From contig CM000152.2 in assembly GCA_000004695.1 (NCBI GenBank), positions 2,240,001-2,304,000 of the forward strand: a stretch of 64,000 bases of DNA, given 5' to 3'. Within the stretch, counting starts at the first letter, position 1. Each line of letters begins with the position of its first letter. The notes under the pieces were generated by a model, which worked only from the letters and a program-made list of their open reading frames with translations, searched no databases and was not told where the DNA came from. Position numbers and translations under genes: made by a program. Below, in pieces: positions 5,750 through 58,845 of this stretch. Source of the DNA: Dictyostelium discoideum (lineage: Eukaryota).

Positions 5750-5771
5750 TTAATTATGATCTTGTTGCTGC

Positions 5772-5817
<46 letters not shown>

Positions 5818-21453: not shown

Positions 21454-22870
21454 TTATTGATTTTGTTGTTTTAAAAAGAAATCTGCAATGAATCTTCTTT
21501 GAATTTTACCTGAAGCAGTTTTTGGGAAATTATCAGTGATAATGATTTTCTTTGGCACTTTGAAAGAGATTAATTTCTTTTGGAGGAATTGGGTGATTTC
21601 TTCGACTGTAATTGATTGAGGTACTTTTGGGATGACGGCAGCCCAAATCTCTTCGCCATACTTTTCATCTGGTACACCAAAGCAAACAGCTTCGAGAATT
21701 TTATCATTTTCCAAGAGAGCATTATCAACTTCCAATGGGGAGATTTTCTCACCACCTCTATTGATGATTTCCTTCTTTCTACCCTTGAGAATCAAGTAGC
21801 CGTCTTGATCTAAATAACCGATATCACCAGTGAGGAACCAACCATCCTTTGTAAAGTTATCAATGTTTGCTTGTGGATTATTATGATAACCATGCATAAC
21901 ATTCTTGCCCTTGATACAAACTTCACCTACATCACCTTGTTTTTGATGCTCGCCATTGTCATTGACAATACTAATTTGAACATTGAATCCCTTACCGACG
22001 CTACCAGGCTTTCTTGGACCGTCTTGTGGCAATGGGTTCGATGCCATTTGGTGGGAAGCCTCTGTCATACCGTAGGACTCAATTACTGGACAGCCAAAGA
22101 ATTGCTCCAATGTCTCTAATAAAGTTGGTGATAATGATGACGACGATGATCTAATGAATCTAAGTAACCCTTTGTTGGAAGAGGATGCAGAGGATGTGGC
22201 CGATTGCTCGACGTTGCAAAGAATTGTATGAATTGTAGGTACGGCACTATACCAATTTACAGAGAATTGTTTAACTTGGCTCCAAAATACACTTGCAGAG
22301 AATCTTGGTGGCACAACTAAACTAGCACCAGCATTGAATGTTGATAAACAAACACCAATTAAACCATGAACGTGGAATAATGGCATGACTACATATGAGC
22401 AATCGGATGGGGTTAAATGGAATGTTGAGGAAATGTTTGCACTTGAGGTTGCCAAATTTTCATGAGTCAATGGTACACCCTTTGGTCTGCCAGTGCTACC
22501 ACTAGTATGCAAAAACAATGCTTTGTCATCTTTATCTGGAACAGTCTCCAATTTAATTTTATCACCTTCATCCTCTCCTGAAATTGTTTCACTTGAGAAA
22601 ATCAAGTCATCTCCATTGCTTGGATCTGTAATTCTATAATAAAGTTTACCTTCCTTTTCATTTTCAACATTTTCAATTTCCCAAACTTTAATACCTAATT
22701 CCTTGGCTGATTTCAATGCTTCACTTAACCCTTTTTGAACAATAACAATATTTGCTCCCATATCTTTATAATAGAAATTAAATTCTTCACTCTTATATGC
22801 TGAATTTAATGGTGCTGCAATACATCTTGCAAATGTTGATCCCTTTTTTTTTTTTTTTCTTAAAGAATTA

Positions 22871-22911
<41 letters not shown>

Positions 22912-23171
22912 GAAAAAAAAAAAAAACTTACCAAGAAACATGATAAAATTGGATAACCATTTGTAATAACTAATGAAACTACATCACCAGTTTTAATACC
23001 TTTTTCAATTAATTTATTTGCAAAGCTAACTGAATCATTTAAAAACTTTTGATAGGTGATAGAGAGTGAACCAAATGATTGACTATCCTCTTTGGCAATA
23101 GGAATTGTTATCAATTTTTTTTTATTATCTCTTGAAGTTGTATCTTTGAAAATTTGATATAAAGTTGACAT
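21454..23171 (-). CDS. AMP-dependent acyl-CoA synthetase/ligase (4-coumarate:CoA-ligase-like / oxalyl-CoA-synthetase-like), 2 exons (exon1 about 22929-23171, intron about 22861-22928, exon2 21454-about 22860).
   Basis: Exon1 MSTLYQIFKDTT...ITYQKFLNDSVSFANKLIEKGIKTGDVVSLVITNGYPILSCFL has a GTAAGT donor. Exon2 reads GSTFARCIAAPLNSAYKSEEFNFYYKDMGANIVIV... and carries the AMP-binding box LHTSGSTGRPKGV plus YGMTE, GEVCIKG, DGWFLTGDIGYLDQDGYLILKGRKKEIINRGGEKISPLEVD and PKTASGKIQRR, which are canonical ANL-superfamily motifs. Confidence 0.85.
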
Positions 23172-25878: not shown

Positions 25879-26731
25879 TTAATAATCAGTTTCAATTACA
25901 CGAATAAAACCTTGACTTGAAGCAAATGCTAAACAATTTGAATAATTTGTATTTTTATTCCAAGAGACAACTGTTAGGTTTACTTTTGGATCAGGGAAAT
26001 GACAAGATTCTATTGGTTTATAAACAAACATTGATTTATTAGCAAAAACAGCTCTTTGATTTGGAAATTCTTTTAACATTTTTGGTTTACTTAAAAATAC
26101 TAATGACTCTTTTGAGGCTTCATCATTATTATTCTTATTTCTATATACTTGAATTTGTTTTTCTTTTTCACTAGTTTCTTCACTAGTTTCTTCATTATTA
26201 TTATTATTATTTTCATTATTTTGAATAGTTTGTTTTTTTAATTTTAAAGATTCATAATGAATTAATGCATTTGATTTTGATTTAAATTTATATTTTCTTT
26301 TATCATTTGAAATTGGATAAATTGTTAATTTACCATCAGAATCAACACTTGCACAATAATGTAAATTCTTTGAGAGATCGAAATCCATAATATCATTTTC
26401 ATGACAAGGTAAACCAAATTTTTGAAGATTCATTAAACTAAAAGTCTTTATATTTGAACCTTCAGAAATTAATACTGCTGGTAAATTTGAATTTTGTGGC
26501 CATTTCATTTTAGTCTTTGAACAGAAATCTCTTGAATTGGTAAATATTGGTAACGAAGAATTCCTTCTATCCCAAAATATAGTTGATCTTTGATAATTTA
26601 TTAAAAATTGATTCCTATCTAATGGATTAAATGTAACACTTGTAATATAATCCTTTTGATTATTACTAAATAATGGTTCAACAAAATATAATTCACAATT
26701 ATCATTATCATCATCATTATTATTATTATTT

Positions 26732-26763
<32 letters not shown>

Positions 26764-29163
26764 TTCAATTGATAATTGATATTGTTTAATAATTAAATTT
26801 AAATCGAAAATGAATGAGGAACCATTTGAACAACCAATTAAAATCCAAGGTGGTGAAGTTTCATCAAAACAAGATGACCAAGCAATACTTGTACCAAAGA
26901 AATCTTTTTCATCTTTTGCAGGTGTTGAAATGAATTCACAATTTTCATAGTTATTTAATGATTGATCATTTAAATTTAATGATTGATCAAAGATTGGTTT
27001 AATCTTTAAGAATTTGGTTAATTGAGTTTTAGTTTTTGAATTATCATTATTGAATTGTTTTTCAACAAAATCTGGATGAGGAATTGGCCAAATCTTTACA
27101 GTACCATCACCTAATAATGCTGATAAAACACCCAATCTAATTGGTGACTTTGTTTCCTTATCTTCATAATATCCACCATATGGCATCCATTTCAAATCCC
27201 AACAACAATTACCTTCATGTGTAATTGAGTATACTAATTTCGGACAACTTGTATCACTTGGTGTTGCATTAATATGTTCAGCTTTATTAAAATCTGGTTT
27301 TTTTTTTTTTGTTTTATTTTCATCACTTTCATTCTCTTTTTCGTTTTCATTTTTATTATTATTATTATTATTATTATTGCTATTATTATTACCATCTTCA
27401 TCATCTTCACCATCTTCATCGTCATCATCATGATTTGATTTAAAATGAGGTCTAATTGAATATTCATAAATTTGAATTATATTTTTACCTTGATAAACTT
27501 CTCTCTTTTGATGAGTTGATTTTGAATCTTTATGAGCACTAACTGCTAAATATTGTTTAGTGGTTGAACAATTGTTACCAACGATTGGCAATGGACACCA
27601 GTCCAAAGCACTAATATGACCACCACACCAAGTTAATGTATCTTTATTTCTAAATTCGGTTGGATTTTGAATGGATTCAAATTGTGAAAGTGAACGATCG
27701 GCTGTATCGTTTTTATCTGATGAGAATCTAAATTCACATGATTTCTTTTCATGATTCCAATGATACCCATTCGATTCTCTTTTACTGAGGAAAGAGAATG
27801 ATGGTTTTAAAACTTCCTTCAAATGAAGTATTGGTTTATTATCAAAATTTGGTAATTCAGTACCATAGAAAAGACCTTCATTTGGAACTCTATCAAAATT
27901 ATATGCTGGTACATAAACACTTAACGTATTTCTATTTGATGGTTCACCATCACCACCAGCACCTTCAATAATCGATAATTCTCTTGATAAAGATGGTGTT
28001 GATGATGCTCTTTTTGGTGTCGCTCTTTTTGGTGTTGCTACTCCTGCTACTGTTGATGCTGCTTTTTTTGGAGTTGCTGCTTTTTTTGGAGCTGCTGTTT
28101 TTTTTACTGTTGTTGGTTTTCCTTTTTTTGCTAATGATCTTTTATTATTCTTACTTGGTATCTTAAATTCTTGTTCAATTTGTTCTTCTTCACCATCATC
28201 TGATTTATATATTTCTGGTTCTGATTCTGATTCTGATTCATGTTCAGATGCTGTTTGATAATCATCACTTGAATCACCACTGGATGCTGACTGATAACTA
28301 TCGTCATCAGAACTTTCAATAGGTAATTTATTTACTACTTTTTTTGATGATCTTGCTGGTCTCTTTGGTGTCATAGAATTTATTGATTTTCTTGAAGGTA
28401 TTTTATTATTACCTTCATCATCATTATCACCACTACCACCACCACTAACAACATCTCCATCATTGTTTGTATTTTTTGATTCTGTAAATTTCTTTTTTGA
28501 TTCAATAAATTTATTGATAAGATTTTCATTTTTATCATTTTTATATTTAGTACCTAAGAATTCAATTTCTGGATATTCATTATTTTCATCTAAATAATTA
28601 TTATTATTATTACTATCATCATCTTCATTATTATTATTATTATTATTATTGTTATTTTTTATACTACTATCATTGTTTTTATTATTAATATTTTTACTAT
28701 TACTTTTATTTTTATTATTATCTAATGGTATTCTATCTTTACAATCTTCCGGACACTTATGACGTCTTGATCTGTGAAATTGACATGCTTTAGATGATTT
28801 TGGAGTTGATTTTGGAGTTGATTTTGGAGTTGATTTTGATGTTGATTTTGATTTTGAAGTTGATTTTGGTGTTGGTTTTGGTGTGATTACTGTTGGTTTT
28901 GTTGTTTCTGAAGTTGTTGCTGTTATTGTTGCTGTTGTTTCTGTTGTTGTTGTTGTTGTAACTGTTGCTTTTGAAATGCTATCACTACTACAATCGACAA
29001 CTACACTATTGAAATTAATATCTTTCTTTTTTTCTTTTTCTTCTTCATTTATTTTAGTTTCTTTTTGAAAAAATGATGTTATTAATGAATTTTCACCACC
29101 CGATGATTTCTTTGCATCATAAGGTTTTGGTTTTGGTGTTTTATCTTTTTCGACTTTGGGCAT
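25879..29163 (-). CDS. Large (1094 aa) single-exon protein. Basic, proline/lysine-rich AT-hook- or histone-H1-tail-like N-terminal third, WD40-like beta-propeller C-terminal half. Function uncertain (a TFIIIC-subunit-like architecture is a guess).
   Basis: Uninterrupted ORF with Dictyostelium codon usage. The N-terminal third carries the repeats TPKSTPKSTPKSSK and KTAAPKKAATPKKAASTVAGVATPKRATPKRASS. A central acidic D/E run is present. The C-terminal half contains many W/G-H/D dipeptide-containing segments (TWCGGHISALDWCP, CWDLKWMPYGG, DGTVKIWPIPHPD, SDGKLTIYPISND, FASSQGFIRVIETDY). Confidence 0.55.
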
Positions 29164-31016: not shown

Positions 31017-31355
31017 ATGGATAAATACCAACCAATATTACCAAATAATCTTAAAATACTTTCAAAACCTATAAATGGTACTAATACCAATATTTCTAAT
31101 AATAATAATAATAATAATAATACCAATATTGGTATTAAAAACAATAATTCTAATAATAATAATATTTCAATAAATTGTGATAACACACAATTCCAAACTA
31201 TATTAAGAGAATTAAAAAAAAGAGAATTCCAAAATAAAACTAGAAAACCAATTAATAAAAAATTAAATTCAAGTAATAGCAATAACAATAACTATAATTT
31301 GAAAATTGAAGATAATTTTATAAATAATAATAATAATAATAATAAAAATAATAAA

Positions 31356-31388
<33 letters not shown>

Positions 31389-31847
31389 TCAACAGAATAT
31401 TTCGTTCCAATAAGTCATAATAGTTCATCAACTATATTTTATAAACATTTAAATGTTTATTTTGATAATAATACTACTACTGATAATCAATATTATAATA
31501 AAAACAATAATTATTTAAAAAATATATATTCCAACAATAATAATAATAATAATTTTAATAATTTTGAAAATCAAACATCAACACAAATTAAAGTTCAAAA
31601 AACTCCATCAACATTTTATTGTAATTTATTAAAAAATAAATCATTACCACCATTACCAAAATCAAAAAGAATTTATAAATTAAATGATGACTGTGTTGTT
31701 CCATCCATATATACCGAAATTGGAGAATTCTATTTAAATAAACCAAAGAAAACTTCTTCAATAAGTCTACCAAGTATAAATCAAATTCAAACTTACTCTT
31801 GGTCTTCTCTTGAACTTCCACCAATTGACGTGGATGCTGAAAATTAA
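31017..31847 (+). CDS. Hypothetical Asn-rich protein (276 aa), single exon.
   Basis: ORF with an ATG in an A-rich context. The composition is dominated by AAT codons, with non-repetitive ends (MDKYQPILPNNLKILSKPINGT... ...TYSWSSLELPPIDVDAEN*). Divergent orientation relative to the upstream gene. No domain recognised, so coding status is moderate. Confidence 0.4.
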
Positions 31848-32080: not shown

Positions 32081-33528
32081 TTATTGATCCTTTTGTTGTT
32101 GTTGTTGTTGGTGTTGATTATAATTATTAATAATTTGTTGATTTTTCATATTTGGTAATGGTAAACCAGTTTGTCTTCTTGGTTCTAATAATAAAGATTT
32201 ATCAAACATTTCATCATCATTTAAGATTGGTCTTGATAAGATTTTATCACGTAATGCAACATTTGAAGGCATTGGATAAGGATTTGAACGATATAATCTT
32301 AAATTCTTTATAATTAAATGAATTGATCTTAATTTTTCAAAATTAATTAATTGTGTTGATTTATATTCTTCATCATCATCATCATCATCATTATTATTAT
32401 TATTATCATTATTATCTAAATTATTTGATTTATTATTTGATTTATCATTATTATTATTATTTATAATTAAAGTTGGATTTGAATCTTCAATAACTAATAA
32501 ATCTTTTGTATATAAACCTAAATATGGAATTAAAGGTGGTGAAGATGAATTTAAAACTTCTCTATAATTTTTATGATTTGATTCAGTTGAGAAAATCTTT
32601 TGTAATTCTTCAAATTGATTCATTGATTTCTTTGAAATTTTATCCCAAGTTAAATATAATCTTTTAATTGCATAATGATAAATTCCTTGAGTGATAGCAT
32701 AACAACAATGGAAATTTTTTAAATTTAAAAGTATGAAAGCAATCTCTATGAATTTTTCAATTACAAGTGCACGTGATGCTGGTGTTGTACAATTTAAAAT
32801 CTCTGAACCAACCCAAGAACTCCATCTATTGAATAGTTGTACCATAGATTGAAAGTTTGGTGAAAGATCAGGTCTAACGAATTTCTTTTTCAATAATTCA
32901 AAAATTGGTATCATTCTAAATGCTTTCTCATCAATTAATGTAATTTGAATAGCTGCTTGTGTACTATCAATATCACAAAAATTAAATTTCTTTGATGTAG
33001 AATTCTCACCACCACCACCATTCAATGATAATGATGATGTTGTTCTTGATCCACCAAGTATAAAATTATGTAATTGACGTTGCATTAATAATGAATCTGA
33101 ACTAATTCCCATTGGATTTTGTGATAATGATGGTGATAATGTTTGTGGTACTGAATTATTATTATTATTACTATTAATATTATTATTACTATTATTATTT
33201 GTTGTTGTTGTTAATATTGATACTGATGTTGTTGGTGTATTGTTTACAGAAGATAATGGTGAAGAATTTGAAATTAAAGGTGATGAAGAAGATGAAGGGA
33301 ATGGAGGTGGTAAACCACTTGATAATGTTGGAGTTGATGGTGAAGATAAAGCAGTTGGTGTACCAGTTCCACTAAATCCACCAATATTATCATAATAATA
33401 TTGATTATAAGTTTGTGATACTCTTTTACAAAAATCACTAAAAAATTGAAAATATTTAAATTCTTCATTTGGTAATGGTTGAAAATAATTTCTACCATTA
33501 TTATTATTGTTATTGCTATTATTATTAC

Positions 33529-33559
<31 letters not shown>

Positions 33560-33991
33560 TTGAATTGGTTGTTCAAAATATTTTTCAGTAAAATCTTGAA
33601 TTAATTCAACTGATGAATTACATTCTTCAATTTGATTCCAAAACATTGGTTTAAATTCAATTAATGATCTAATTAAAAATAAACATCTCTCTCTAATTTT
33701 CATTCTAAACTCTAATTGAATATTATATAAATTTTCATAATGTTTCTCTTGACTATATATTGATATCAATGACTGAATGTATGATTCAGTAGATAAGAAA
33801 TAATCATTATGACATAAATTTACAATTTCAATAAATGTATCATCCTTATAATAATAATCCATCAATTTCAATAAAATTTGATTAACTGTAACATTCTTTA
33901 CAACTTGATTACCTTTTTTAATTATATAATTTGATTGATCTTTTTCGTTAATCTAAATTAAAAATAATTTATTATATTTTAATATTAATAT

Positions 33992-34022
<31 letters not shown>

Positions 34023-36340
34023 AAAACCTACATCAAATATTTTCTTTAAATTTTTAATTATAAAAAATGTAATTAAAATTGCATTATCATATTGTTGAAT
34101 ACTAGCATCATTATTAATTTTAAATAATATTGGACCAAAAATATTTGAAATTTTATGTTGAATAATTTCTAATTTCTCTTGGTCTTCATAACTTAGAGAT
34201 TCAATTAAATTAATATCAAAACTATTATTATGATTTTCATTTTCATTTTTATCCATTGTATCAATATTATTATTATTATTACTATTATTATTACTATTAT
34301 TATTACTATTATTACTATTATTACTATTATTATTACTATTATTATTATTTTCAATACCAATTTCAATTTGAATTAATTTACAAAGATGTGATAATAATGA
34401 TTTTAAAACTGTCCAATGAATTTGTGGTTGTGAGAATATTATTGAACGTACAAATGATAATTTATATCTTTCATCATTTTCATCGATAATCTTATTAATA
34501 GTTTCAGAAAGTAATACATCTGGTAAAATTGAATTTGGTAATACTTTAAAGAAATGAATTAATAATTCACCCAATACTTGTGGTTCTACCATTTCATTCA
34601 AATTTTTATATGCATCCTCTTTTCCTCTAGTAACTAATTTAATTAATGATTCAATTGTTATTCTATTTCTTGGTGATGATGGTTCAATAATTGTTGTTGT
34701 CATAACAATTGGTTGTGGTTGTGATTGTGGTGGTAGTGGTAGTGGTAGTGGTAGTGGTAGTGGTGGTGGTGGTTGTATATTTCCACTATTTCTTATATTT
34801 GATGTTTGATTGTTATTATCTGTACCAATATTTAAATCTGGTATAGTTATACTATTTCTTATATTTGATGTTTGAATATTATTAATATTATTAATATTAT
34901 TATTATTATTTACATTATTATTACAATTATTTGTATTTGTATTATTGTTACTATTTGATTCGCTGCCGCTGCTGCAAATTTTACTATTATTTGTTGAGGT
35001 AGAAGTTGAATTATTTATATTATAAATAATTTCAATTGATTCTTTAGTTGATTCTAAATGAGTTATTAGATGATGTAAGAAAACAGGATAAGGTGAATCA
35101 CCTAATAATCGCATTGATTCTAAGGGTATACCAAATACATCCTCTTTGAAACAATATTGTTGTACATCACCCCTTGCATTTCTAGTTGTTAACATTTTAC
35201 TTAATGTTGATGCTGCTGCTTCTTTATTTGTATCAACTGTTGATTTTTTACTTGTTTTAAATAATGGTTTAAAAACCAATGCTGTTGTATTTGATCTTTC
35301 TCTAGGTGAGACTGGTACTTCAATATTATCATTATTATTATTACCATTATTATTATTTGTATCAAATCCAATTGTTACATTATTAGCACCATTTTCACTT
35401 GTAAAACGTGGTGATGAAATTGGTGTTGATTGATTTGATGATTCTTTTGAACTAAATAAAGATATTAAAATATTTTGACCAAATGCAATTGATTTATGAG
35501 TTTCTCTACTTGGTTTTCTTGATGCAACACCATTATTATTATTATTGTTATTATTATTTGATTGTTGATTAATTGAAAATTGATTGGTTGAATAGGATCT
35601 TGGTGGTGAATTAGAATAAGGTGAATTTGAAGTTGTAGTTGGGGTTGATGCTGGTGTACTCCCATTACCACTATTAGTAGTAGTAGTTTGAGAGTTTGTT
35701 GCTGTTGTATTATTATTATTATTATCACTATTAATAGAATCTTGATCTTCCTCTGCAGCCAATACAATCTTTGAATCTTTATCTTTTAAAGGTGATAAAA
35801 GATAATTTAAATTATTTGTTTTATTCTTTCTTAATGTTTTACCACCACCACCACCACTGCCACCACTTCCACTACCACCAAATGATGGTAATGAACCACT
35901 TCTACTTCTAGTCTCTGGTTTCAATCTAGATTCTTGATGAACAATATTCAAATTCTTACTTGGTGATGTTGATAATTGTAATGGTGGTATCTTTGGTGGT
36001 GATGATGAAATTTTATCGTCTTCTATTCCGTTGTTATTGTTTTTGTTATTATTATTCTTTGGAATTGGTAATGATGGTGAAGTATTTGTAGTTGTTGTAT
36101 TTTTTGTAGTATTAATAATTGGTGGTGGAGTTGTAACTTCAGTTGTTGTTGGTGTCGATACTATACTTGGAGTTGAAGGAGCAGTATAAGAACCACTATT
36201 ATTATAATTATTATTTATAATGATTGGATGATTTGATTCTTTTAATATTGATTTCGAAGGTGATTGAACAGAAACACTAAAGAAACGATTTCTCTTTTTC
36301 TCAAAGCTACTTGGTTCACCATTAAATGTTAATTTCTTAC

Positions 36341-36387
<47 letters not shown>

Positions 36388-36899
36388 GTATTACTAGTTG
36401 AAACTGATGTTAATCTTGGACTTTGAACTGATAGTTTATGTTGATAAATTAATGCTTGATATGCAGATTCAACATCTTCAAACATTCCAAAAACATATTT
36501 CTTATAAGATGTTGTAATCTCTATAGAATGCCCTAAAATAACTGATGATACTCTTTTAATTGATAATACATTTTTAAAATCTGAATATTTCTTTTGTGAG
36601 AAAAAAAATAAAAAATAAATTATTAATAAATATACGTTAATATAATATATTATTATATAATATTATTATTATATATTAACAACTTACTTTAATTTCCTTA
36701 TTAAAAATTAAACTATAAAAACAAAAATAATTATTTGTAATGAATAATTTACCAGCTTTTGAAACCTTTCTTCTATATGCACAAACATATGGTTGTTCTG
36801 ATACTAATCTCTCAAATTCTGGTAACTCGAATATTTCTAAAATATTAATTGAAAATTTATTTTTAAATGGTACAATAGTATCCTCTGTTGTTTCTTCTA

Positions 36900-36945
<46 letters not shown>

Positions 36946-37554
36946 GTTATTATTATTATTGTTGTTGTTGTTGTTATTATTATTATTATAATTATTATTA
37001 TCTTTAAATATATATTTAACTTTACTTAATAAGGTTTGTCTTCTTCCATTATTGTTAATATTTCCTAATGGTGGTTTTAAAGGTGATGAAGAAGGTGAAC
37101 CAATTGGTGATGATGATTTTCTTACAAAATCTGAATGTGCTTTTTCATTAAGATCATATGAGTATGATGTTGAATTTGGTATTCCATTATTATTACTACT
37201 ACTACTACTACCATTACTAATTGATTGTGATCTAGTTTGTTGCATCGACTCATCGAAATAAAATGTTGCAGGTGGTAACTGTACTTTTAATGGTGCTGCT
37301 GGTGTCATGGTGCTGCTATTTCTTGATGTAGTAGCGTATTTCCATGTTTTATCATTATCATTATTATTTTTATTTTTATTTTTAATTATTTTACCATTAT
37401 TACTTTCTTTTTGAGTCGAAGATGAAGATTCTAAATCAACATCTTCAAAAAATTCTTCCTCTTGATTTTTATTAATACCATTACTACTACTACTAAATGA
37501 TATTGATGTGGATGCGGATTTTTTTAAATTTCCACCATTGTCACCTGAACTCAT
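32081..37554 (-). CDS. Multidomain signalling protein of about 1780 aa: N-terminal GRAM domain, RhoGAP domain, then RasGEF N-terminal (REM) domain and RasGEF/CDC25 catalytic domain. 3 exons (about 36680-37554; about 33975-36605; 32081-about 33955).
   Basis: Exon1 ends ...[46 protein letters not shown] with a GTAAGT donor. It continues in frame as [50 protein letters not shown], completing the GRAM domain. RhoGAP: ...[38 protein letters not shown]...[36 protein letters not shown]...[30 protein letters not shown] donor after ...KKIFDV, an intron of about 80 nt, then the acceptor ..aatttag. The last exon then gives [48 protein letters not shown]... (REM). CDC25 domain: ...[52 protein letters not shown]...[40 protein letters not shown]. 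Confidence 0.75.
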
Positions 37555-37610: not shown

Positions 37611-38446
37611 TTTGTTTATTCTTTTACTTTTTTTTATTTATTTATTTATTTATTTGTTTTTCTTAATGTGTTGTGTCAATCAATTTTTTTTTTTTTTTTT
37701 TATTAATTAATATTTTTTTTTTTTTTTTTTAAATTTTTATTTTAAAAAAAATTTTTTTGGAAAATAATAATAAAAATAAAAATTAAAAAAATAAAAAAAG
37801 TTAAAAGATAATAATATTCATATGTGTGGGTTGAGTGTTTCAGGGTGTGTGTATATATGTTGGGTTGATTATTGGAATTCTATTAATTTTTTTAAAAAAA
37901 TAAAAAAAAAAAATTTCTTTTTGTTGCTATCAATATCAAAAAATGAAATTTTTATTTTTTTTTTTTTTTTATTTTATTTTTTTTTTTTTTTTTTATTTTT
38001 TTTTTTTTTATTTTATTTTTTTATTTTAAAATATCTGAATCCTGCAAAAATAATCTGATTTTTATATTTTTTGATTATATTTTTTAATATGTGTTGTCCC
38101 AAGGTTAACCAAATAAAAAGATTTAAAAATAATTTGGTTAATAATAAAAATTAATTGGTAATAAAAAAAAATATAAAATAAAAAAAAACCCAATTTAATA
38201 ATTTATTAATTTTATAAAAAAAAAATTATAAGAAGAGTGGTCGCATTTAAAAAAAAATATAAAATAAAATTAAAATTTTTTAAAATTAATTATTTTTTGA
38301 TTGTTTTTTTTGATTGTTTTTTTGATTGTTTTTTTGATTGTTTTTTTTTTTTTTTTATAAAATTAAAACATCATCAACCACCCAAAGAAATTATTAGAGT
38401 GGAAAGATGGAATTAAAAATAAAAAAGAAAATAAAAAAGAAAATAA

Positions 38447-38509
<63 letters not shown>

Positions 38510-38572: not shown

Positions 38573-40186
38573 TTATAAACCAATTGGTTTATATTGTCTA
38601 TCTCTTTTAACTTTTCTAACAACTAAAACTGCAACTATAACAATTAAGAAAAATCCACCAATGACACCAAATGAAATTCCAACTTTTTGACCAGTTGTTA
38701 ATCCGTTTGTATTATCACTAGAGATTTCGAAATCATCTTTTTCACATTGTAATTTTTTAGATTGATTAATAACAGTACAAAAATATGAAACTGATGGTAA
38801 GCAATCTATACCAAAAGAATTTACAGTATTGGTTTCATTAATTTTAAAAGTAGTACTTGAAAGGTTAATTTTAGAGTTTGTACAATAAACTGAAGGACCA
38901 TGATCATCTTGTTTAGCATAGTTTCCAATGAAGCTAGTACTGTTAATAGTTATACTACTTGAGTAGATATCAATTGCACCACCACTAACTGCTGCGGTAT
39001 TATTAATGAATTGAGATCCAATGATTGTAGTTGGAGTATCGAGAAAAGCATAATTTGAAGAATTTATATTGATAGCACCACCATTTTGGGCAAAGTTATT
39101 GGTGAATATAGAGTTTTTAACTAAACATTCAGTGGCAGTGAGTGAAATAGCACCACCAGAAGAACCTGGTGATTTTTGGTTGTTATTATTTGCAAATAAG
39201 CAACTATCAACTGTAATTAAACCAGAATTTAAACCAAAGATTGGAGCAGTATTTAAATTGTTTACAAAATTACAATTTAAGAAATAAGTCTTTGTAAAAT
39301 AATTTGTGAAAGCAAAACCAATACCACCTAAAGCATTTGTGAAATTTACATTTGTAAATTTGAATTGTGGTGTAGTGAGGAACTCAGATGCTAAAAAGAA
39401 GGCTGCATTAGAAGCAATTGAATCCAATTTTGAATTTGTCATTGTCAATAGACCATTTCTCATATAAATAATACCACCAGATGCTGAGTTTCTAATATTG
39501 CTAAATGAACATTGATCAATTGTAATTACAACATTTAAATCAAAAGCATAAAGTACACCACCGGAAATTTTTGAAGATGTTGAATTATTAAATGTGGTCT
39601 TACTGATATTAATTACACTGTTGGCTGGTGGGTAATCAGATTCGCCATCGGTTGAATCAATTGCAATTGAACCACCACCAATTGTTGCATTATTATTATT
39701 GAATACACAATTATTGATTTCCAATTGTATATTTGATGTACCATTATTGAAAAGTACTGGTCCATATGGTTTATTACCATTTTGAAATGTAATACCAGTG
39801 AATGAAACTATACTTGTGTCATAGATTGATGATGGTTCAATTCTAATAAATGAATCAGTAGCATTTGAAAGATCAATAATTACATCATTGGTTTCTTTAT
39901 TATTATTTACAAGAGTTATAGATTGGTTGGTCACTTTTCCAAATGTTGCTTGATTAATCAAATATGTACCTGGTTCAATATTCATTGTTATGCTTTCAAA
40001 TTGTCCACCACATGATAAAATTGATTGACTAATACTTTGACATGGTGTGGCTGCTGCAGTACCACAATTTTCTGTCAATCCAGATTTTGAGTCTGTATAA
40101 CTAATACATTGTTCTCCTCCCAATACTATATTATCACCAAATATATAAACATATAAAAATAATAATGCAATAATTAATTTATACAT
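38573..40186 (-). CDS. Secreted, membrane-anchored right-handed beta-helix (pectin-lyase-fold-like) repeat protein of 537 aa. Signal peptide, and a single C-terminal transmembrane helix followed by a short basic tail.
   Basis: N-terminal MYKLIIALLFLYVYIFG. Repeated parallel-beta-helix motifs are present: NNNATIGGGSIAIDS, SGGIIYMRNG, GGAISLTATEC, NGGAININSSN, SGGAIDIYSS. The C-terminus reads GISFGVIGGFFLIVIVAVLVVRKVKRDRQYKPIGL*. Single exon. Confidence 0.7.
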   Translation of the reverse strand: MYKLIIALLFLYVYIFGDNIVLGGEQCISYTDSKSGLTENCGTAAATPCQSISQSILSCGGQFESITMNIEPGTYLINQATFGKVTNQSITLVNNNKETNDVIIDLSNATDSFIRIEPSSIYDTSIVSFTGITFQNGNKPYGPVLFNNGTSNIQLEINNCVFNNNNATIGGGSIAIDSTDGESDYPPANSVINISKTTFNNSTSSKISGGVLYAFDLNVVITIDQCSFSNIRNSASGGIIYMRNGLLTMTNSKLDSIASNAAFFLASEFLTTPQFKFTNVNFTNALGGIGFAFTNYFTKTYFLNCNFVNNLNTAPIFGLNSGLITVDSCLFANNNNQKSPGSSGGAISLTATECLVKNSIFTNNFAQNGGAININSSNYAFLDTPTTIIGSQFINNTAAVSGGAIDIYSSSITINSTSFIGNYAKQDDHGPSVYCTNSKINLSSTTFKINETNTVNSFGIDCLPSVSYFCTVINQSKKLQCEKDDFEISSDNTNGLTTGQKVGISFGVIGGFFLIVIVAVLVVRKVKRDRQYKPIGL

Positions 40187-40533: not shown

Positions 40534-43500
40534 TTACAACTGCTCGTCATTACCGTTTGGGGTGTTGAAAGATGAATTATTAGGTGATTCGAAATCATTA
40601 TTAGAATATTCAGAAGGTGAATTTGAGTTTGAATTATTTGAATTTTGGCGAGAATCGCTGATCATTGTTGATAATTTGGTACTGTTTCTATTTTTTGAAC
40701 CTCCGCTATTTGTTGGACTATTATCTGAACTTGTATTAATATTTCTAGCACGTTGTTCAAAACAATACAAAATACTAAATCCAGGAACGATTTCAGTGAT
40801 TATTAAACCAATGAAACTGAATATCATTGAATTTACATTTCCTGCTACTAAAATCAATACAAATACACAATGTAATAAAAATCCAATCGAACATGCAACA
40901 GTGAGTGTAAAAATTTTTCTTTGATGATTTGATTTTGAGCCCACTTTAATATTGGTTGAACGCATAACAATGAATAAACGGCCACCCAAGTAAATGAATG
41001 CTGCACCCATAATTAATGAAATTAATGCTTGAATCACCGCGTAAACAATACTAACTACACGTTGTGGTGTTGAACTTTCCACTGGAATTATAATACGCGA
41101 ACCACAATCATTACTTGGATCGGTATTGGTATATTGGAAAACTAATACAATGGCAATGAATAATAGGTAGAGGAATGCATTGATTACAAATACAATTGTA
41201 AATAATCTCTTTGATAAATTCTCAGCAGATTTATTCTTTTTCAATACCAAGAATACAATGACATACCAAAGTACTAAAAGAATATTAAATGCTGTAAAGT
41301 AAATAAATGTTGGTAATACCACTAGAATGTAATCGGCGATTGGACTATCAGATAAATTACCACTTGGCATAATAAAGAAATAAATGGCTCTAATTGTGAT
41401 AAATAGTGTTACGACACCAATTAAAAGATGGGTTAGTTGGAAATTTCTTTTTTCTGAAACAAACTGAGTTCTAACAATAAGACATAATTCAAATAAACCC
41501 CAAATTGAGACTACTGAAAAGAGAGCACCCAATGTATACATTAATGCTCTTGATGTTGAGTCGAATGCTTGTTTACTTTCATTTTCCCATTCATCCATTC
41601 GATTAATTGGGAAATAAATTGGATTACCACCTTCAATGGTAACAATTGAACATAACATTAAAACTTCATCTTTACCTGCAGTTACACTATCCTTTGAAAT
41701 TTGAGTGAATATTTTATTTGATTGAATTGGAGTTGGTGTTGTTGATTCACCATCGATTTGAACTGCAAAATCTAAAATTGGATATTTTGTGCTAGATAGA
41801 GATATTTTCAAACAAATGGTTGCTTCATTTATACCATCTTGTGATTTAATCATAATACCATCTCCTAATAATGTACCAATGATTGCATCATTAGAGTTTT
41901 TAACACCATATTTATCAGCTTTCTTATAGGATACGAAATTTGATGCTAATGATTCTTTTTGTGCTGATGTATAGATTTCTCTTGAAATTTGTGAAATTGA
42001 TAAAGATTGACAACTTTGAGAGATTGAATCATTTGAAAATTCAATTTTACCATAATCGAATGAAAATGATGAATTTACACCTGCGCATGGTTTAGTTTGA
42101 CCTAATAATGGTGTTGATGCAGTGAAACATTGTGAGCCACCTTTACCTGAACAACTACATGTAATTGAGTTCAAATTTGATTGTAATCTTTCCATACGAC
42201 AATATGCTTCTGAACGGAATAAATCTGCAACTTGAGTTTTTGCTGCTTTTGTAACACTCTTGTAGAATAGTTGATAATTGAATACACTATCGATATCATT
42301 TGGAATGAATGATTTCGCAGTATTCCAAACAATTGGTTTATAAACACCTGGTAACCATGTAGCTGCTTTCCATTGGAATTTATTTGTCCATTTATTGAAT
42401 GAGTCCATACAACCTTCACATAAATCTTGATCCATTTCATTGAATTGGTAGTTGAATGGTAAATTATTAACTGTTATAGTGGATTCTAAAATTTTACAAC
42501 CCATTTGTGATGTACATGAACTTTGATTTCTTGCCGGTATCCACCATACACCACCATCATCTTCACAACTAACTTTACTCAAGTAGTCCAATCCTAATGG
42601 ATAACAACCATTTGGTGAATCTTGTTGGGCATATGGTTCACAACTTATGCCACTAAATTTACCATGTGGGAATAAACATTTACCATATCCATCAGGATAA
42701 TTATAATTTCTTGTAGTGGCTTGATTGAAATAAAATTCATCAGAACAAATACCTGCTGTTAAACATTCTTGTTCAGTTTGACACTCAATTGGTTTTAATG
42801 AGCATAAACTTTGTTGAGCATCTGGACCAATGCATTCACCTTCAAGTTTTGTTGAACAATCTATCCATGTATAACCTGAACCAGCAGTAATACATTGTTG
42901 TTCATCTGTTGCAGATTTTAATATACAAACTTTTGCTTCGGTTGACCATTCAGTTGTACCTACAGGATTATCTAATGCTGCACAATTTGTGCTATTCATT
43001 CCGGTTTGTAAAATTGCACAATAATCATCTTGATTATTTGCTAAACTTGAAGAGCATTCATAACCACATGGTACTGAACATTTACCTTTAGAATTACAAT
43101 TACTTTCGCTTGTTGCTGTTAAATCATATTCACCATTTGGTAAAAGACAAATTTGATTTTGAGTTTGACATGATGTTTGATCTGTAAATTCAGTAGCTAC
43201 ATGACATTGAGTATCTTCATTTGTACAAACACCACAAAAATCTTTTAAAACACAAGCATCTTCACATGACTCTTCAATACCATTTTCAGTATATGTATTA
43301 TCACTGCATGACAAGTATGGACAAATACCCCAAGAAGTACAATTATCAAAATGTGATACTAATCTAAAATCCCAATATAAAAACATACTATCCAAACAAG
43401 TATCATGATGAGAAAGGCATGAACCATCCAAACATCCATTTGTTGAATAACATTGTTCTTTGCTGTATGATACTCTTGACCCCCATGTATATGTAGAACG

Positions 43501-44348
43501 TTCATTTATATCATTTTGACCAATACAATCATCTTTTAAATGTTTATTGAAAACTTTAGTAACAACATCATCATTTACAATGGTTGAACTCTCCAACAAT
43601 GAGAATAATGTACCAGGTGATAAATTTGATAATACACATTTTACATATTCAAAATCGATTTTATTAAAATTTGGTAAACAAGTTCTTGAATATAAATTAC
43701 ATTTACCATCGCCATATCCATTACAATCTGTATCATTTGTACAAAATGATGTTGGTGGTATTAATTTACTCTTGCAATCTCTTAAAACTGTAATTGATGT
43801 TAATTCTAATTTGGTTGGTTCAGTTGATGGCACAGCACAATCATCAATACCATCCAACGAGCTACCATAATCTGATAATACTGATGAGGTACATTCTAGA
43901 CTTGAACATTGTTCACCTACTAAACTTTGATTCACCGATACGAATTGTGTGATGTTAGTTGGAATAATTGATGGATTACAGCATTGATAATAATCCTGAA
44001 TTGGTGAACAACATGGATCAGTTTTATATTCTGGATCAGTACTTAAGTATTGACATAATCTAATTGAAATATTCTTTACAACAGTTTCCATATGTAATAA
44101 TGATAATGCTTTATTACTACAACCTATCCATGCATCACTAATAGTTAATGAATCTAAACTATATCTATAATTATTTAATTCATCAATATCTGATACATTA
44201 AATAATACTTTTTCTGTATTTTCTAACAATTCCAAAACTTGTTGAAATTTATCAGTATCACATTCAATTTCTTTTTCTTTAAATCCAACTTGAATATTAA
44301 TTGGCTAATTAAAAAAAAAAAAAAAAAAAAATGGTTAGTAAATAATAA

Positions 44349-46921: not shown

Positions 46922-52826
<5,905 letters not shown>

Positions 52827-53477: not shown

Positions 53478-56400
53478 TCAATCATCATTACTGGTTGGAG
53501 TGTTGACTGATGAATTATTGGGTGATTCGAAATCATTATTTGAATACTCGGATGGTGAATTGGAATTAGTATTAATTGAATTTTGACGAGAATCGCTAAC
53601 CATTGTCGATAATCTCGTTCCTTTTTCTCTCTTTGAGCCACCTCTACTGCTACCCCTAGTTGTTCCACTTGCGGTGTCAGCAACATTATTTTTAGCACGT
53701 TGGTCAAAGCAGAATAAAATACTACATGCTGGAATAATTTCAGTGATTATTAAACCAATGAAACTGAATACCATTGAATTTACATTTCCTGCTACTAAAA
53801 TCAAAACAAAAGCACAATGTAATAAAAACCCAATTGAGCAAACGAATGAAAGTATGAAAATTTTTCTTTGATGATTTGATTTTGAGCCCACTTTAATATT
53901 GGTTGAACGCATAACAATGAATAAACGGCCACCCAAGTAAATGAATGCTGCACCCATAATTAATGAAATTAATGCTTGAATCACCGCATAAACAATACTA
54001 ACTACACGTTGTGGTGTTGAACTTTCAATTGGAATTATAATACGTGAACCACAATCATTGGTTGGATTTGATTTGGTATATTGGAAAACCAATACAATTG
54101 CAATGAATAATAGGTAGAGGAATGCATTGATTACAAATACAATTGTAAATAATCTGTTTGTTAGATTATCAGCAGATTTATTCTTTTTCAATACCAGGAA
54201 AACAATGACATACCAAAGTACTAAAAGAATATTAAATGCTGTAAAGTAAATAAATGTTGGTAATACCACAAGAATGTAATCAATGATTGGACTATCGGAT
54301 AAATTACCACTTGGCATAATAAAGAAATAAATGGCTCTAATTGTGATAAATAGTGTTACGACACCAATTAAAAGATGAGTTAATTGGAATTTTCTTTTAA
54401 TTGATATATTTCTTTGTTTATATCTTGCAATTGCGATTAAACATAGTTCAAATCCACCCCACAACGCGACAACCAAAAAGAAGGTGGCCAATGTATACAT
54501 TAATGCCTTTGATGTCGAGTCGAATGCTTGTTTTCTTTCATCCTCCCATTCATCCATACGATTAATTGGGAAATAAATTGGATTACCACCTTCAATGGTA
54601 ACAATTGAACATAACATTAAAACTTCATCTTTACCTGCAGTTACACTATCCTCTGAAATTTGAGTGAAAACTTTACTTGATTGAATTGGATTTGGTGTTT
54701 TTGATTCAATATCATAACTACCATCATTTATTTGAATTGCAAAATCATAAATTGGATATTTTGAATTATTTGTTCCAGATATTGTTAAACAAATGGTTGC
54801 TTCATTTATACCATCTTGTGATTTAATCATAATACCATCTCCTAATAATGTACCAATGATTGCATCATTAGAGTTTTTAACACCATATTTATCAGCTTTC
54901 TTATAGGATACGAAATTTGATGCTAATGATTCTTTTTGTGCTGATGTATAGATTTCTCTTGAAATTTGTGAAATTGATAAAGATTGACAACTTTGAGAGA
55001 TTGAATCATTTGAAAATTCAATTTTACCATAATCGAATGAAAATGATGAATTTACACCTGCGCATGGTTTAGTTTGACCTAATAATGGTGTTGATGCAGT
55101 GAAACATTGTGAGCCACCTTTACCTGAACAACTACATGTAATTGAGTTCAAATTTGATTGTAATCTTTCCATACGACAATATGCTTCTGAACGGAATAAA
55201 TCTGCAACTTGAGCTTTTGCTGCTTTTGTAACACTCTTGTAGAATAGTTGATAATTGAATACATCTCTATTTTCATTTGGAATGAATGATTTTGCAGTAT
55301 TCCAAACAATTGGTTTATAAACACCTGGTAACCATGTGGCTGCTTCCCATTGGAATTTATTTGTCCATTTATTGAATGAATCTATACATGCTTCACATGT
55401 TTCTTGGTTCATTTCATTAAAATGGAAGTTGTATGGTAAATTGGTTTCATATGATTCTAAAATTTTACAACCCATTTGTAATGTACATGAACTTTGATTT
55501 CTTGCTGGTGTCCACCATACACCACCATCATCTTCACAATCGATTTGAGTTAAAACCATTGGATTAATAGAGTAGCAACCATTTGGTGAATCTTGTTGTT
55601 CAGACTCCTTACATGAAATTAAATATTGATAATTATCATGTGGGAACACACATCTACCCAATCCAACAGGATAATGATTATTTGCAAGAGAACTAAAGTA
55701 AAAGTCATCGGAACAAGTACCTGCTGCTGTTAAACATTCTTGTTCAGTTTGACATTCAATTGGTTTTAGTGAACAAAGTTTTACATTATTTAATGGTCCA
55801 GAACATTCACCTTCAAGTTTTGTTGAACAATCTATCCATGTATAATTTGTACCAGTGGCAGTACATTGTTGTTCATCCGTTGCAGATTTTAATATACAAA
55901 CATTTGCTTCGGTTGACCATTCAGTTGTACCTACAGGATTATCTAATGCTGCACAATTTGTGCTATTCATTCCGGTTTGTAAAATTGCACAATAATCATC
56001 TTGATTATTTGCTAAACTTGAAGAGCATTCATAACCACATGGTACTGAACATTTACCTTTAGAATTACAATTACTTTCGCTTGTTGCTGTTAAATCATAT
56101 TCACCATTTGGTAAAAGACAAATTTGATTTTGAGTTTGACATGATGTTTGATCTGTAAATTCAGTAGCTACATGACATTGAGTATCTTCATTTGTACAAA
56201 CACCACAAAAATCTTTTAAAACACAAGCATCTTCACATGACTCTTCAATGCCATTTTCAGTATATGTATTATCTTTGCAAGACAAGTATGGACAAATACC
56301 CCAATCAGTACAATTATCAACATGAGAAACTAATCTAAAATCCCAATGTGCATAAATTGACTCAATACAAGTATCATGATAGGTAATACATGATTCATCA

Positions 56401-58845
56401 ATACATTCTTGATGTTGAACTGCATAACAATCATCTACTTGGAATCCTGGTGACCAAATAAATGTTGAACGATCTTTAATATAATTATGACCAATACAAT
56501 CCTCTCTTATATGGTTATTGAAAACTTTAGTTACAACATCATCATTTACTGTTGTTGAACCTTCTAACAATGAGAATAATGTACCAGGTGATAAGTGTAA
56601 TAGTACACATTTTACATATTCAAAATCGATTGTATCAAAATCTGGTATACAAGTTCTTGAGTATAAATTACATTCACCATTTCCATATCCATTACAATCT
56701 GTATCATTTGAACAAAATGGTGATACTAATTTACTCTTGCAATCTCTTAAAACTGTAATTGATGTTAATTCTAATTTTTTAGGTTCAATTGATGGCACAG
56801 CACAATCATCAATACCAGTTAACGAACTACCATAATCTGATAATACTGATGAGGTACATTCTTGACTTGAACATTGTTCACTTACTAAACTTTTATTCAC
56901 CGATATGAATTGTGTAACATTTTTTAAAACAATTGATGGATTACAACATTGATAATATCTAGCCAATTCTGAACAACATGGGTCAGTTTTATATTCTGGA
57001 TCAGTGACGAAATGTGAACAATATTTTGTTGATATATTCTTTGCAACAGTTTCCATATGTAATAATGATAATGCTTTATTACTACAACCTATCCATGCAT
57101 CACTAATAGTCAATGAATCTAAACTATATCTATAATTATTTAATTCATCAATATCCGAAACATTAAATAGTGTTGTCTCTGTTTTTTCAATAAGTCCCAA
57201 AACTTTTTCAAATTCTGTATTATTACATTCTAAATTTTTTTCTTTAAAATTAATAGTTAAATCAATTGGCTAAAGTAATAATAATAATAATAATAAAAAA
57301 TAAATGTTAATAATTTTTTAAAAAATAAATGTTAATAATTTTTTAAAAAATAAAAATAAAAATTTAATATTATTATTTACATTATTATTTTCATCAAAAA
57401 TAGTTCCAAGGAATTGTAAAGATGATTCTAAAATTGTTGAATAATTTTCAATAAAATCACCACCAACTGAAAGAATAAATGCAACTTGAAATGATTTTGG
57501 TTTAAAAGTATTTAATGGTGGCTGTAAAATATTTAAATAGTTAAATGAAGTTGAATCAATGAAACGAGCAGATACTGGCCATAATGGATTTATATCGTAT
57601 TGTGGATAAATTGCGGTGAATGTAGTGCTAGTTGTAAAAGCTGCTGAATCATAATCAATAGTTGGCAAACGTAAACGTACACTATTAACCAATGCTAAAG
57701 TACCAGGTTGTGTTGATAATGATCCCAATGAATATCTATACCTATTACCTTGATTTGTAATTGAAAATGAATAATCTGTTTCATAAACTGTATATACACT
57801 TAAATAAATAATTAATGGTGTTGTACTATCAACTGGTTCCAAATATAATACCATATTATTTTCATCTAAAAAAAAAATAAAAAATAAAAAATAAAAAAAC
57901 AATTAATAAATTAATAAATTAATAAATTAATAAAATTATTATTATTTAAATACGTTACAATCTTGTTCTAATTTCCAAGTTGTATAACTGGCATTTGGAA
58001 ATATATATTCGTTTGAAATAAATATTGAAGTACTTTGAAAAATTGAAGGGAAATTAAAATAATAGAAACCAGCATTTTCAACTTGAAATGAATAATGTTG
58101 ATATTGATTATCTGTTAAGAAACCATAGACAACTTGACCAATAGTTACACATATATGGTCAGATGATACTGGTTGACAATTTGAAGTGTCGACAGGTTCA
58201 CTTGGTACATCATTTGAACGAATGATCATTTTAAAAGTATAATTGTTACTAAGTGGTTGAATTCTTAAAAAGTAAGTGTCACGACTCCAAGAATCTGTGA
58301 ATGTAAAATGTTCAGTTCTATTCCAATTATCTGATGGACATATATTGAATAACATATTTCTTTCAGGTGAAAAACCAGATGAATAACGTGAATAGCTTGA
58401 TGATGGTGTTTTACCATTAATATAAACTTGACCATATCCAGAGATTGGTAAAACTTTTAAAAATAAACCTTTACAACCAAATGAATCGGCTTTCATTCTA
58501 AAAAATAGATCCTCTGATGTAGTATAGATTTTTTCTGTATCCGATTCAATAGTTGTCCATTCGCCATTACAAATATTCTCAGTGACATTACATGCATTTG
58601 TACAACTTGGATCACGGATTTTCGGACATTCGTTCATATCTGTATAATCACATGTACAATCTATATTCTTATCACTTGGAATATCTGTACAATTATAGTT
58701 TGGACATCCCAATGAATCATATAAATAAATATCTTGATCAAATTCAACATCAATCAATGCATATGATAAATCGGTTCCCAATAAGTTAACATCTTTTTTT
58801 ATAATAGTTGACGATTTAACTTCAATACCTATTTACAATTATTTT

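Follow-up and report, generated by a model that had tools for sequence, protein, structure and literature searches.

A single Dictyostelium gene encodes a GRAM domain, a probable pseudoGAP and a RasGEF module in one predicted protein

The stretch of Dictyostelium discoideum DNA analyzed here (the window, 64,000 nucleotides) contains a gene predicted to encode a GRAM domain, a RhoGAP-homology domain and a RasGEF module in one polypeptide. Alignments indicate that the RhoGAP-homology domain is probably a pseudoGAP that keeps the fold of its family while having lost both the arginine finger and the equivalent of p50RhoGAP Asn194. Neither the gene nor the pairing of RhoGAP and RasGEF domains is a new discovery, since both are already catalogued and papers of 2005 and 2016 had described the architecture in Dictyostelium (PMC1273635, PMC4865317). 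What the present analysis adds is that the RhoGAP-like domain is without its catalytic Arg here and in every sampled amoebozoan relative. The reading we favor, and consider likely, is that the protein is a GRAM-targeted GEF for a Ras/Rap-family GTPase, equipped with a non-catalytic RhoGAP-like module that binds Rho/Rac, and that it is one of a published trio of such proteins.

Gene structure, domain order and identity

The gene occupies positions 32081..37554 and, like every feature described below, lies on the minus strand. Three open reading frames are found there (36676..37554, 292 aa; 33972..36485, 837 aa; 32081..33871, 596 aa), at the positions given in the original prediction, which had joined them into one spliced protein of about 1780 aa. 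The single spliced protein stands but the length does not, as the spliced coding sequence of 5298 nt translates to 1765 aa without internal stops. Exon 1 (36688..37554) encodes aa 1-289, which take in an N-terminus rich in S and N and the opening half of the GRAM domain, inside which lies intron 1 (36591..36687; 97 nt, GTAAGT...AAAAG, phase 0). Exon 2 (34032..36590; aa 290-1142) supplies the second GRAM half and the RhoGAP-like domain, joined by a long disordered linker, and intron 2 (33953..34031; 79 nt, GTAGGT...TTTAG, phase 0) falls between that domain and the REM. Exon 3 (32081..33952; aa 1143-1765 and a TAA stop) encodes the REM, a linker, the CDC25 domain and a Q-rich tail. The GC content of the exons is 24-25%, compared to 9% and 7.6% for introns 1 and 2, respectively. 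The linkers are as long and as rich in N, S and T as had been proposed (17% Asn, 13% Ser).

The joined gene model is supported by the GRAM match, which spans junction 1, and by the absence of an intron at each junction in at least one dictyostelid orthologue. Junction 1 (NKEIK/KYSDF, aa 289/290) is uninterrupted in Polysphondylium violaceum, where it sits in a single stop-free exon of 3.1 kb, and Acytostelium subglobosum shares the intron position (SEIK/E). Junction 2 (KIFD/INEKD) is contained within one A. subglobosum exon covering aa 88-1062 and within a single 1108-aa reading frame of Heterostelium album, and P. violaceum carries an intron at the identical phase-0 position. In another assembly of D. 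discoideum (GCA_054859355.1), the syntenic locus is annotated as one gene with both junctions unchanged, and its 1761-aa product is 96% identical to ours. It is very improbable that the three reading frames are separate genes, or that the RasGEF part has an mRNA of its own. An internal ATG coincides with the beginning of the middle frame as listed, and the third has one near its start, but initiation at these sites would halve the GRAM and REM domains. The gaps between the frames are short (79-97 nt, 8-9% GC), have GT..AG ends and keep a matching phase, and six other dictyostelid proteins have the complete architecture. On the strength of these low-GC, in-phase gaps and of the orthologues without introns we rejected separate genes. 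At the level of sequence, a real three-exon gene is confirmed by the intron phases, the orthologue exons and the second-isolate annotation; as had been anticipated, a view limited to the reading frames would overlook its unity.

Pfam searches of the spliced protein, together with orthologue profiles, give the domain order GRAM, RhoGAP-homology, weak REM and full CDC25 RasGEF, bearing out the order originally proposed. The GRAM domain (36447..36837, intron 1 included; aa 240-337) matches PF02893 with an E-value of 1.6e-13 and 50.9 bits, above the 23.6-bit cut-off, and is kept in orthologues. The REM, or RasGEF_N, domain (33560..33931; aa 1150-1273) is divergent, and its match to PF00618 is below the cut-off (E 0.0043; 17.7 bits versus 28.3). 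The same profile was found in 5/5 orthologue segments, with a best E-value of 1.1e-7, and the REM of SOS1 matched the predicted segment weakly (E ~1).

Three Dictyostelium proteins have been described as combining a RhoGAP domain with a RasGEF domain, namely GflB, GflD and GefD (Senoo 2016, PMC4865317), and the window gene likewise places RhoGAP-homology and RasGEF domains in one D. discoideum polypeptide. The gfl genes were defined by the absence of a clear RasGEF_N domain; GefD was described with a RhoGAP homology domain, GRAM was mentioned for GefU alone, and knockout of gefD gave no obvious phenotype (Wilkins 2005, PMC1273635). The sub-threshold REM suits the gfl definition and thus favors gflD over gefD. 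A short D. purpureum protein with RhoGAP, REM and CDC25 domains and a strong REM (P0108) fits the GefD type. The size of GefD, which we take to be ~668 aa, also forms part of the basis for this choice. Judging from descriptions rather than from alignment to a reference sequence, the gene is most likely gflD (UniProt Q54WL2, by a gene-name text search) and less likely gefD; organism group and the near-identical protein of the second isolate agree with either. GflB itself was rejected, as it has 1601 aa with Asn repeats at 72-126, compared to 1765 aa and an Asn tract at ~186-218 in the window protein. An exact-sequence look-up of the spliced protein in a protein collection gave no match, and the literature yielded no functional study of GflD. 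The window gene therefore appears to be catalogued but uncharacterized.

The RhoGAP-homology domain

Orthologue and family profiles compared with solved RhoGAPs place the RhoGAP-homology domain at 34032..35150 (aa 770-1142). Its Pfam core spans aa 932-1040 (PF00620, E 1.8e-10; 41.3 bits versus a 24.5-bit cut-off), and low-complexity inserts break the domain at aa 816-929 and aa 1037-1086. Where active GAPs read GIYR or GIFR, the alignments place IIYN, putting Asn813 (codon 35019..35021) at the arginine-finger position. The p50RhoGAP Asn194 position is occupied by Lys1102 (codon 34152..34154; K-ISNIFGP versus N-LAVVFGP in active GAPs), and the equivalent of p50RhoGAP Lys122 is Ile. The first two of these substitutions extend to the orthologues: the finger position is Leu, Leu, Leu, Ile and Leu in five other species, leaving 7/7 GflD-type sequences from six species without an arginine finger. 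The Asn194 equivalent is K/R/K/Y/Q in the GflD-type orthologues and Lys in most other members of a wider amoebozoan family, the cassette described below. The check for an intact arginine finger that accompanied the original prediction thus fails.

The assignment of these residues was drawn from several alignments. Asn813 aligns opposite the catalytic Arg of p190A (3fk2/5irc) and also of p190B, and hhalign, which also provided the Lys122 assignment, set N813 opposite R85 of p50RhoGAP (84% probability, 170 columns). The p50RhoGAP sequence in this comparison was entered by hand, and the real PDB sequences of RhoGAPs in the other alignments gave a concordant residue assignment. A profile of 13 cassette members matched ARHGAP15, p190A, DLC1 and p50RhoGAP along the entire domain (E 1e-25 to 1e-21), with a non-Arg consensus opposite the catalytic Arg and Lys opposite Asn194; for the family profile the ARHGAP15 match, again over the full domain, had an E-value of 1.3e-25, and the range for ARHGAP15, p190A and DLC1 was 1e-25 to 3e-23. 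A regular-expression scan for finger motifs was uninformative, and the finger positions were assigned by alignment instead. AlphaFold gave low-confidence models of the domain whether the window sequence (pLDDT 46) or the compact orthologue from Acytostelium (pLDDT 54, pTM 0.53) was placed first, and a Foldseek search of the PDB was uninformative, placing p50RhoGAP at the top with E ~1 and a TM score of 0.24. The residue assignment therefore comes from sequence and profile alignment only. The 114-aa insert after the finger loop contains arginines (RNR, aa 930-932), one of which might in principle extend into the active site, but we rejected them as a substitute finger because they are not conserved in orthologues.

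RhoGAP-homology domains without a finger, such as the BH domain of p85-alpha and the ASH-RhoGAP-like domains of OCRL1 and INPP5B, serve in GTPase binding or scaffolding. These domains resemble the window domain in having a RhoGAP fold without the catalytic Arg, and they are matched in the PDB by the family profile (E 8e-14 and 4e-13), but they differ in partners and context, being found in lipid kinase and phosphatase subunits. It is active GAPs (ARHGAP15, p190A and DLC1) that the family profile matches best, and so the pseudoGAP state had an independent origin.

The exchange-factor module and competing readings

The CDC25-homology RasGEF catalytic domain (32330..32953; aa 1476-1683) matches PF00617 over profile positions 3-180 of 181, with an E-value of 2.1e-49 and 168.3 bits versus a 23.1-bit cut-off. 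It also matches RasGRF1 (2ije, E 5.5e-31), as well as RalGPS1, Epac2, Cdc25, RasGRPs and SOS1. In CDC25 domains, a hydrophobic and an acidic residue of the helical hairpin (SOS1 L938 and E942) expel Mg and nucleotide. As aligned to RasGRF1, the hairpin of the window protein (32291..32527) consists of two 21-residue arms flanking a 37-aa, N/D-rich insert at the tip (aa 1639-1675), and includes an 18-residue stretch aligned to PYLGMYLTDLVFIEEGTP of RasGRF1. Leu and Asp occupy the positions equivalent to L938 and E942 (SOS1 numbering); across six species the acidic position is invariably Asp, and the hydrophobic one is either L or F. The length of the tip insert ranges from 0 to ~150 aa among the six species and differs also between isolates, while the hairpin motifs are invariant or conservative, a combination that suggests a tolerated loop. 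The hairpin, which had likewise been singled out for checking, is intact and carries the disordered insert at the tip.

In our favored reading, the GRAM domain would give the protein its membrane or lipid targeting, and the REM and CDC25 domains would act as an exchange factor for a Ras-family GTPase, Ras or Rap1. The pseudoGAP would most likely serve as a Rho/Rac-binding or intramolecular regulatory module that places or gates the GEF, providing Rac input to Ras/Rap instead of Rac-GTP hydrolysis.

The original prediction was of a bifunctional enzyme, in which a catalytic RhoGAP switches off Rho/Rac while CDC25 activates Ras/Rap. The two domains do have true homology to their respective families, but a coupling of Rho/Rac inactivation to Ras/Rap activation is unsupported given Asn813 at the finger, Lys at the Asn194 position and Ile at the Lys122 position, and an Arg at the finger position was absent from every cassette member examined, as it was from the GflD-type sequences. 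The nearest exception is a distant cassette member, P0114, with an Arg one residue beyond the finger position. In gflB-null cells Rac activity is slightly raised, from which Senoo et al. proposed a RacGAP role for this paralogue (PMC4865317); a domain of this family without the finger could thus still lower Rac activity in vivo, whether through sequestration or through an unconventional mechanism. We found no biochemical GAP assay on any member of the family in the papers examined, and on balance we regard a bifunctional enzyme as improbable. About as improbable is that both signaling domains are degenerate, making the protein a scaffold or pseudo-enzyme, or else a GEF for a small GTPase that is neither Ras nor Rap. 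The sub-threshold REM and the disordered 37-aa insert at the catalytic hairpin would fit such degeneracy, and Wilkins et al. considered that gfl proteins might have more distant relatives of Ras as their targets (PMC1273635). However, the CDC25 domain matches its Pfam profile end to end and RasGRF1 strongly, its hairpin motifs hold across six species whatever the length of the insert, and the paralogue GflB, likewise a gfl protein, is active as a Rap1 GEF (PMC5997169).

Relatives and the amoebozoan cassette

GflB provides a paralogue precedent for the GRAM-targeted GEF that we favor. It is a Rap1 GEF stimulated by G-alpha2 (PMC5997169), and its region holding the RhoGAP and RasGEF domains binds RacE, Rac1A and RacB, whatever the nucleotide state of RacE. 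GflB shares with the window protein a layout of N-terminal lipid- or membrane-binding region, RhoGAP-homology domain and RasGEF, and belongs to the same amoebozoan cassette. It differs in having, in place of a GRAM domain, an N-terminal region that binds phosphatidylserine and F-actin, and in being up-regulated during development, unlike GflD and GefD (PMC4865317). Yeast Bem2, in a comparison taken from Wilkins et al. alone (PMC1273635), also combines RhoGAP with RasGEF-like domains, but Bem2 is described in the literature as an active RhoGAP, and it differs in domain order and content. GbpD (GefU) is a Dictyostelium RasGEF in which GRAM is paired with REM and CDC25 (PMC1273635), but it has domains that bind cyclic nucleotides and lacks a RhoGAP-like one.

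An upstream RhoGAP-like domain (E <1e-4) is present in at least 25 of the 150 closest CDC25 relatives. Pfam found RhoGAP and RasGEF in 9/9 members checked, with RasGEF_N between them in eight; P0098 has no RasGEF_N between the two and has a C-terminal RGS domain. The genera represented are Dictyostelium, Heterostelium, Thecamoeba, Luapelamoeba and Balamuthia. The window protein conforms to the cassette as defined in the present analysis, an order of RhoGAP-like, RasGEF_N and RasGEF domains without a finger Arg. Three GflB-sized relatives (P0103, P0068 and P0139) likewise lack it, D. discoideum GflB itself being outside this comparison. Word-indexed homologue searches returned only four proteins with a de-inserted query and no matches with the trimmed RhoGAP alignment, and so could not retrieve the D. 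discoideum paralogues. It is possible, and we propose it tentatively, that the RhoGAP module of the cassette lost its catalytic Arg before the split of dictyostelids and Discosea and is now a Rho/Rac-sensing domain that gates the adjacent Ras/Rap GEF. If so, the cassette, which spans GflB-, GefD- and GRAM-bearing GflD-types, would be a hard-wired relay from Rac to Ras/Rap rather than a GAP, and the proposed RacGAP role of GflB would need reinterpretation.

Crosstalk between Ras and Rac at the leading edge is central to chemotaxis and macropinocytosis in Dictyostelium, and GflB is a key Rap1 GEF there. If the RhoGAP-like domain is indeed a pseudoGAP, experiments on GflB, GflD and GefD should regard it as a GTPase-binding or regulatory module, and information may flow from Rac to Ras/Rap, as opposed to Rac being turned off while Ras is simultaneously turned on.

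Structure of the gene and its neighbors

The window is AT-rich (GC about 13-36%), and its coding poly-Asn tracts are of the kind usual in Dictyostelium. Three long minus-strand ORFs lie head to tail at exactly the positions given in the original prediction, and are separated by two short gaps with the features of introns. The 5' gap (intron 1, 97 nt, 9% GC) opens with GTAAGT straight after AAA (Lys289) and ends in ...CACAAAAG, and the 3' gap (intron 2, 79 nt, 7.6% GC) opens with GTAGGT after GAT (Asp1142) and ends in ...AATTTAG. Both are phase 0, and the exons they separate have 24-25% GC. Splicing gives a gene at 37554..32081 on the minus strand with a CDS of 5298 nt, encoding 1765 aa with no internal stops; only A/T-rich sequence lies 5' of the ATG at 37554. 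Pfam assigns aa 240-337 to GRAM, aa 932-1040 to RhoGAP and aa 1476-1683 to RasGEF. The GRAM match runs continuously over junction 1 (aa 289/290), the earliest ATG in the middle ORF falls within GRAM, and the earliest ATG in the last ORF falls within the REM region.

The complete architecture is common to six dictyostelid proteins, and each junction is validated because at least one orthologue that lacks the intron encodes it. The junction-1 residues of Polysphondylium violaceum (NKEIKKFAHF) lie within one stop-free 3.1-kb exon, and this species has an intron (IFN|DNDD, GTATGT..ATAG) at the exact site of intron 2. Acytostelium subglobosum has an intron at the junction-1 site (SEIK|E) and a single exon covering aa 88-1062, junction 2 included, and in Heterostelium album junction 2 is internal to one 1108-aa ORF. 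A second D. discoideum assembly, GCA_054859355.1, carries a syntenic locus that differs by ~2% nucleotide substitutions and by indels in repeat length and that shares the donor sites; its annotation there is a single protein of 1761 aa, whose junctions are identical. The claim that the three ORFs form a single gene is therefore borne out by the GRAM match across junction 1, the intron-less orthologues and the second annotation, and at the level of sequence we regard it as confirmed.

Intron gain and loss among the dictyostelids is reciprocal: Acytostelium retains intron 1, which P. violaceum has lost, whereas P. violaceum retains intron 2, which is absent from Acytostelium and Heterostelium. 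Differences between the two D. discoideum proteins are nearly all changes in repeat length (aa 186-218, 896-910, 1037-1086 and 1639-1675), affecting poly-Asn, (Pro-Leu)n, an Asn-Ser repeat in the RhoGAP-like domain and an insert at the tip of the CDC25 hairpin.

Directly upstream of the gene is a minus-strand 537-aa ORF (38573-40186) with no Pfam domain; its N-terminus is hydrophobic, it contains repeats rich in G/N/S/T, and in its C-terminal part a hydrophobic stretch precedes a basic tail; its counterpart in the other isolate is a 535-aa gene. Within the intergenic DNA upstream of the window gene, an (ATTT)n microsatellite occurs at about 38430-38500, and CAATCAAAAAAA is present in four direct copies at about 38290-38345. 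Farther along, three tandem minus-strand ORFs of ~1240 aa (40534..44235, 46922..50683 and 53478..57200) all have a seven-transmembrane domain of the THH1/TOM1/TOM3 type (PF06454, E between 1e-10 and 9e-14) at their C-terminal ends. The upstream neighbor in GCA_054859355.1 is annotated as a 5173-aa product extending past the fetched locus, and may be a merged model. On the other side, a plus-strand Asn-rich ORF of 276 aa (31017-31847), with no Pfam domain, is convergent with the 3' end of the gene, the two stop codons lying ~230 nt apart; the other isolate has an annotated gene of 266 aa in this position. Four further genes, all on the minus strand (5750-7159, 10584-12428, 21454-22941 and 25879-29163), carry by Pfam a Nuf2 kinetochore domain, Pumilio/PUF repeats, AMP-binding enzyme domains and, in a 1094-aa ORF, a weak WD40 match.

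The RhoGAP-homology and exchange domains

The RhoGAP-like domain extends from aa 770 to aa 1142 and is broken by two low-complexity inserts (aa 816-929 and aa 1037-1086). Active RhoGAPs have the finger-loop motif (E)GI(F/Y)R-xSG. The arginine finger, whose integrity the original prediction had marked for checking, is not intact: the loop reads EIIYN-INN, with Asn813 at the finger position, and orthologues have Leu or Ile there (SIYL in four, DLYI in one). Orthologue-profile HMM alignments to p190A-RhoGAP (3fk2, 5irc) and p190B (2ee4) set this post-Tyr residue opposite the catalytic Arg. An hhalign comparison with p50RhoGAP (84% probability, 170 columns) pairs Asn813 with R85, Lys1102 with N194 and Ile967 with K122. 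AlphaFold models of the domain were too poor to add anything.

Between this domain and the CDC25 domain, aa 1150-1273 form a putative, divergent REM that scores below the Pfam cut-off (PF00618, 17.7 bits) and matches the SOS1 REM weakly; the corresponding segments of all five orthologues match PF00618 (best 1.1e-7). The CDC25 domain is complete, closest to RasGRF1, RalGPS1, Epac2, yeast Cdc25, RasGRPs and SOS1, and the hairpin motifs are conserved. The hairpin tip carries a 37-aa Asn/Asp-rich insert. Orthologues have anything from 0 to about 150 aa here, and the two D. discoideum genomes also differ in the length of the insert, which suggests that it is a tolerated loop.

Gene identity

Neither the gene nor its architecture is new to the literature, and the gene is most likely gflD (Q54WL2) rather than gefD. 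Senoo et al. (PMC4865317) name GflB, GflD and GefD as the three proteins of Dictyostelium in which RhoGAP and RasGEF domains occur together. The length of Swiss-Prot GefD, about 668 aa, was counted in favor of gflD, and a short D. purpureum RhoGAP/REM/CDC25 protein with a strong REM fits the GefD type, which favors gflD for the window gene. The choice is also favored because the REM of the window protein falls below the Pfam cut-off and because, in the survey of Wilkins et al. 2005 (PMC1273635), GRAM is mentioned for GefU only. That survey lists 25 gef genes, in which REM accompanies CDC25, as well as four gfl genes, in which CDC25 has no clear REM beside it, and notes the RhoGAP homology domain of RasGEFD (PMC1273635). 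GflB was rejected as the identity of the window protein, as it is 1601 aa long with Asn repeats at residues 72-126 (Senoo et al., PMC4865317).

An amoebozoan cassette and its proposed mechanism

An exhaustive search with exon 3 returned 8716 matches, and among the 150 nearest CDC25 domains, at least 25 have a RhoGAP-like domain upstream (E < 1e-4). Nine relatives from Dictyostelium, Heterostelium, Thecamoeba, Luapelamoeba and Balamuthia were checked against Pfam; RhoGAP and RasGEF were found in 9/9, with RasGEF_N in between in 8/9. The exception, P0098 (813 aa), lacks RasGEF_N between the two domains and instead has a C-terminal RGS domain in addition to its finger-less RhoGAP-like domain and RasGEF. 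This RGS domain hints that the protein couples directly to heterotrimeric G proteins, in the way reported of GflB with G-alpha2. The GflD-type RhoGAP-like domain occurs in two A. subglobosum genes, P0016 and P0019, of 1062 and 1364 aa.

A 13-sequence cassette profile aligned with solved RhoGAPs across the entire domain (ARHGAP15, 1.3e-25; p190A, 8e-25; DLC1, 3e-23; p50RhoGAP, 3e-21), which makes the assignment of the RhoGAP fold secure. The profile has a Leu consensus opposite the finger Arg, with Arg in 0/13 sequences, and a Lys consensus opposite Asn194. That the RhoGAP-like domain is finger-less throughout the cassette is new in a modest way, and we found no statement of it in the literature examined.

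The original prediction had proposed that one polypeptide couples Rho/Rac inactivation to Ras/Rap activation, and this proposal finds support only in part. A single protein with both domain types does exist, but its RhoGAP domain lacks the finger Arg and the Asn194 equivalent. Residual or unconventional GAP activity of this domain is an alternative to consider, as Rac activity is slightly higher in gflB-null cells, which the authors read as RacGAP function (Senoo et al., PMC4865317); sequestration of Rac would account for this rise equally well. We propose instead that the window protein would act as a GRAM-targeted GEF for a Ras- or Rap-family GTPase, in which the RhoGAP-homology module would be a non-catalytic, Rho/Rac-binding or autoregulatory domain. 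A precedent for such a mechanism is the paralogue GflB, as it binds RacE, Rac1A and RacB by way of a stretch holding both domains, whatever the nucleotide state of RacE, and is a Rap1 GEF stimulated by G-alpha2 (PMC5997169).
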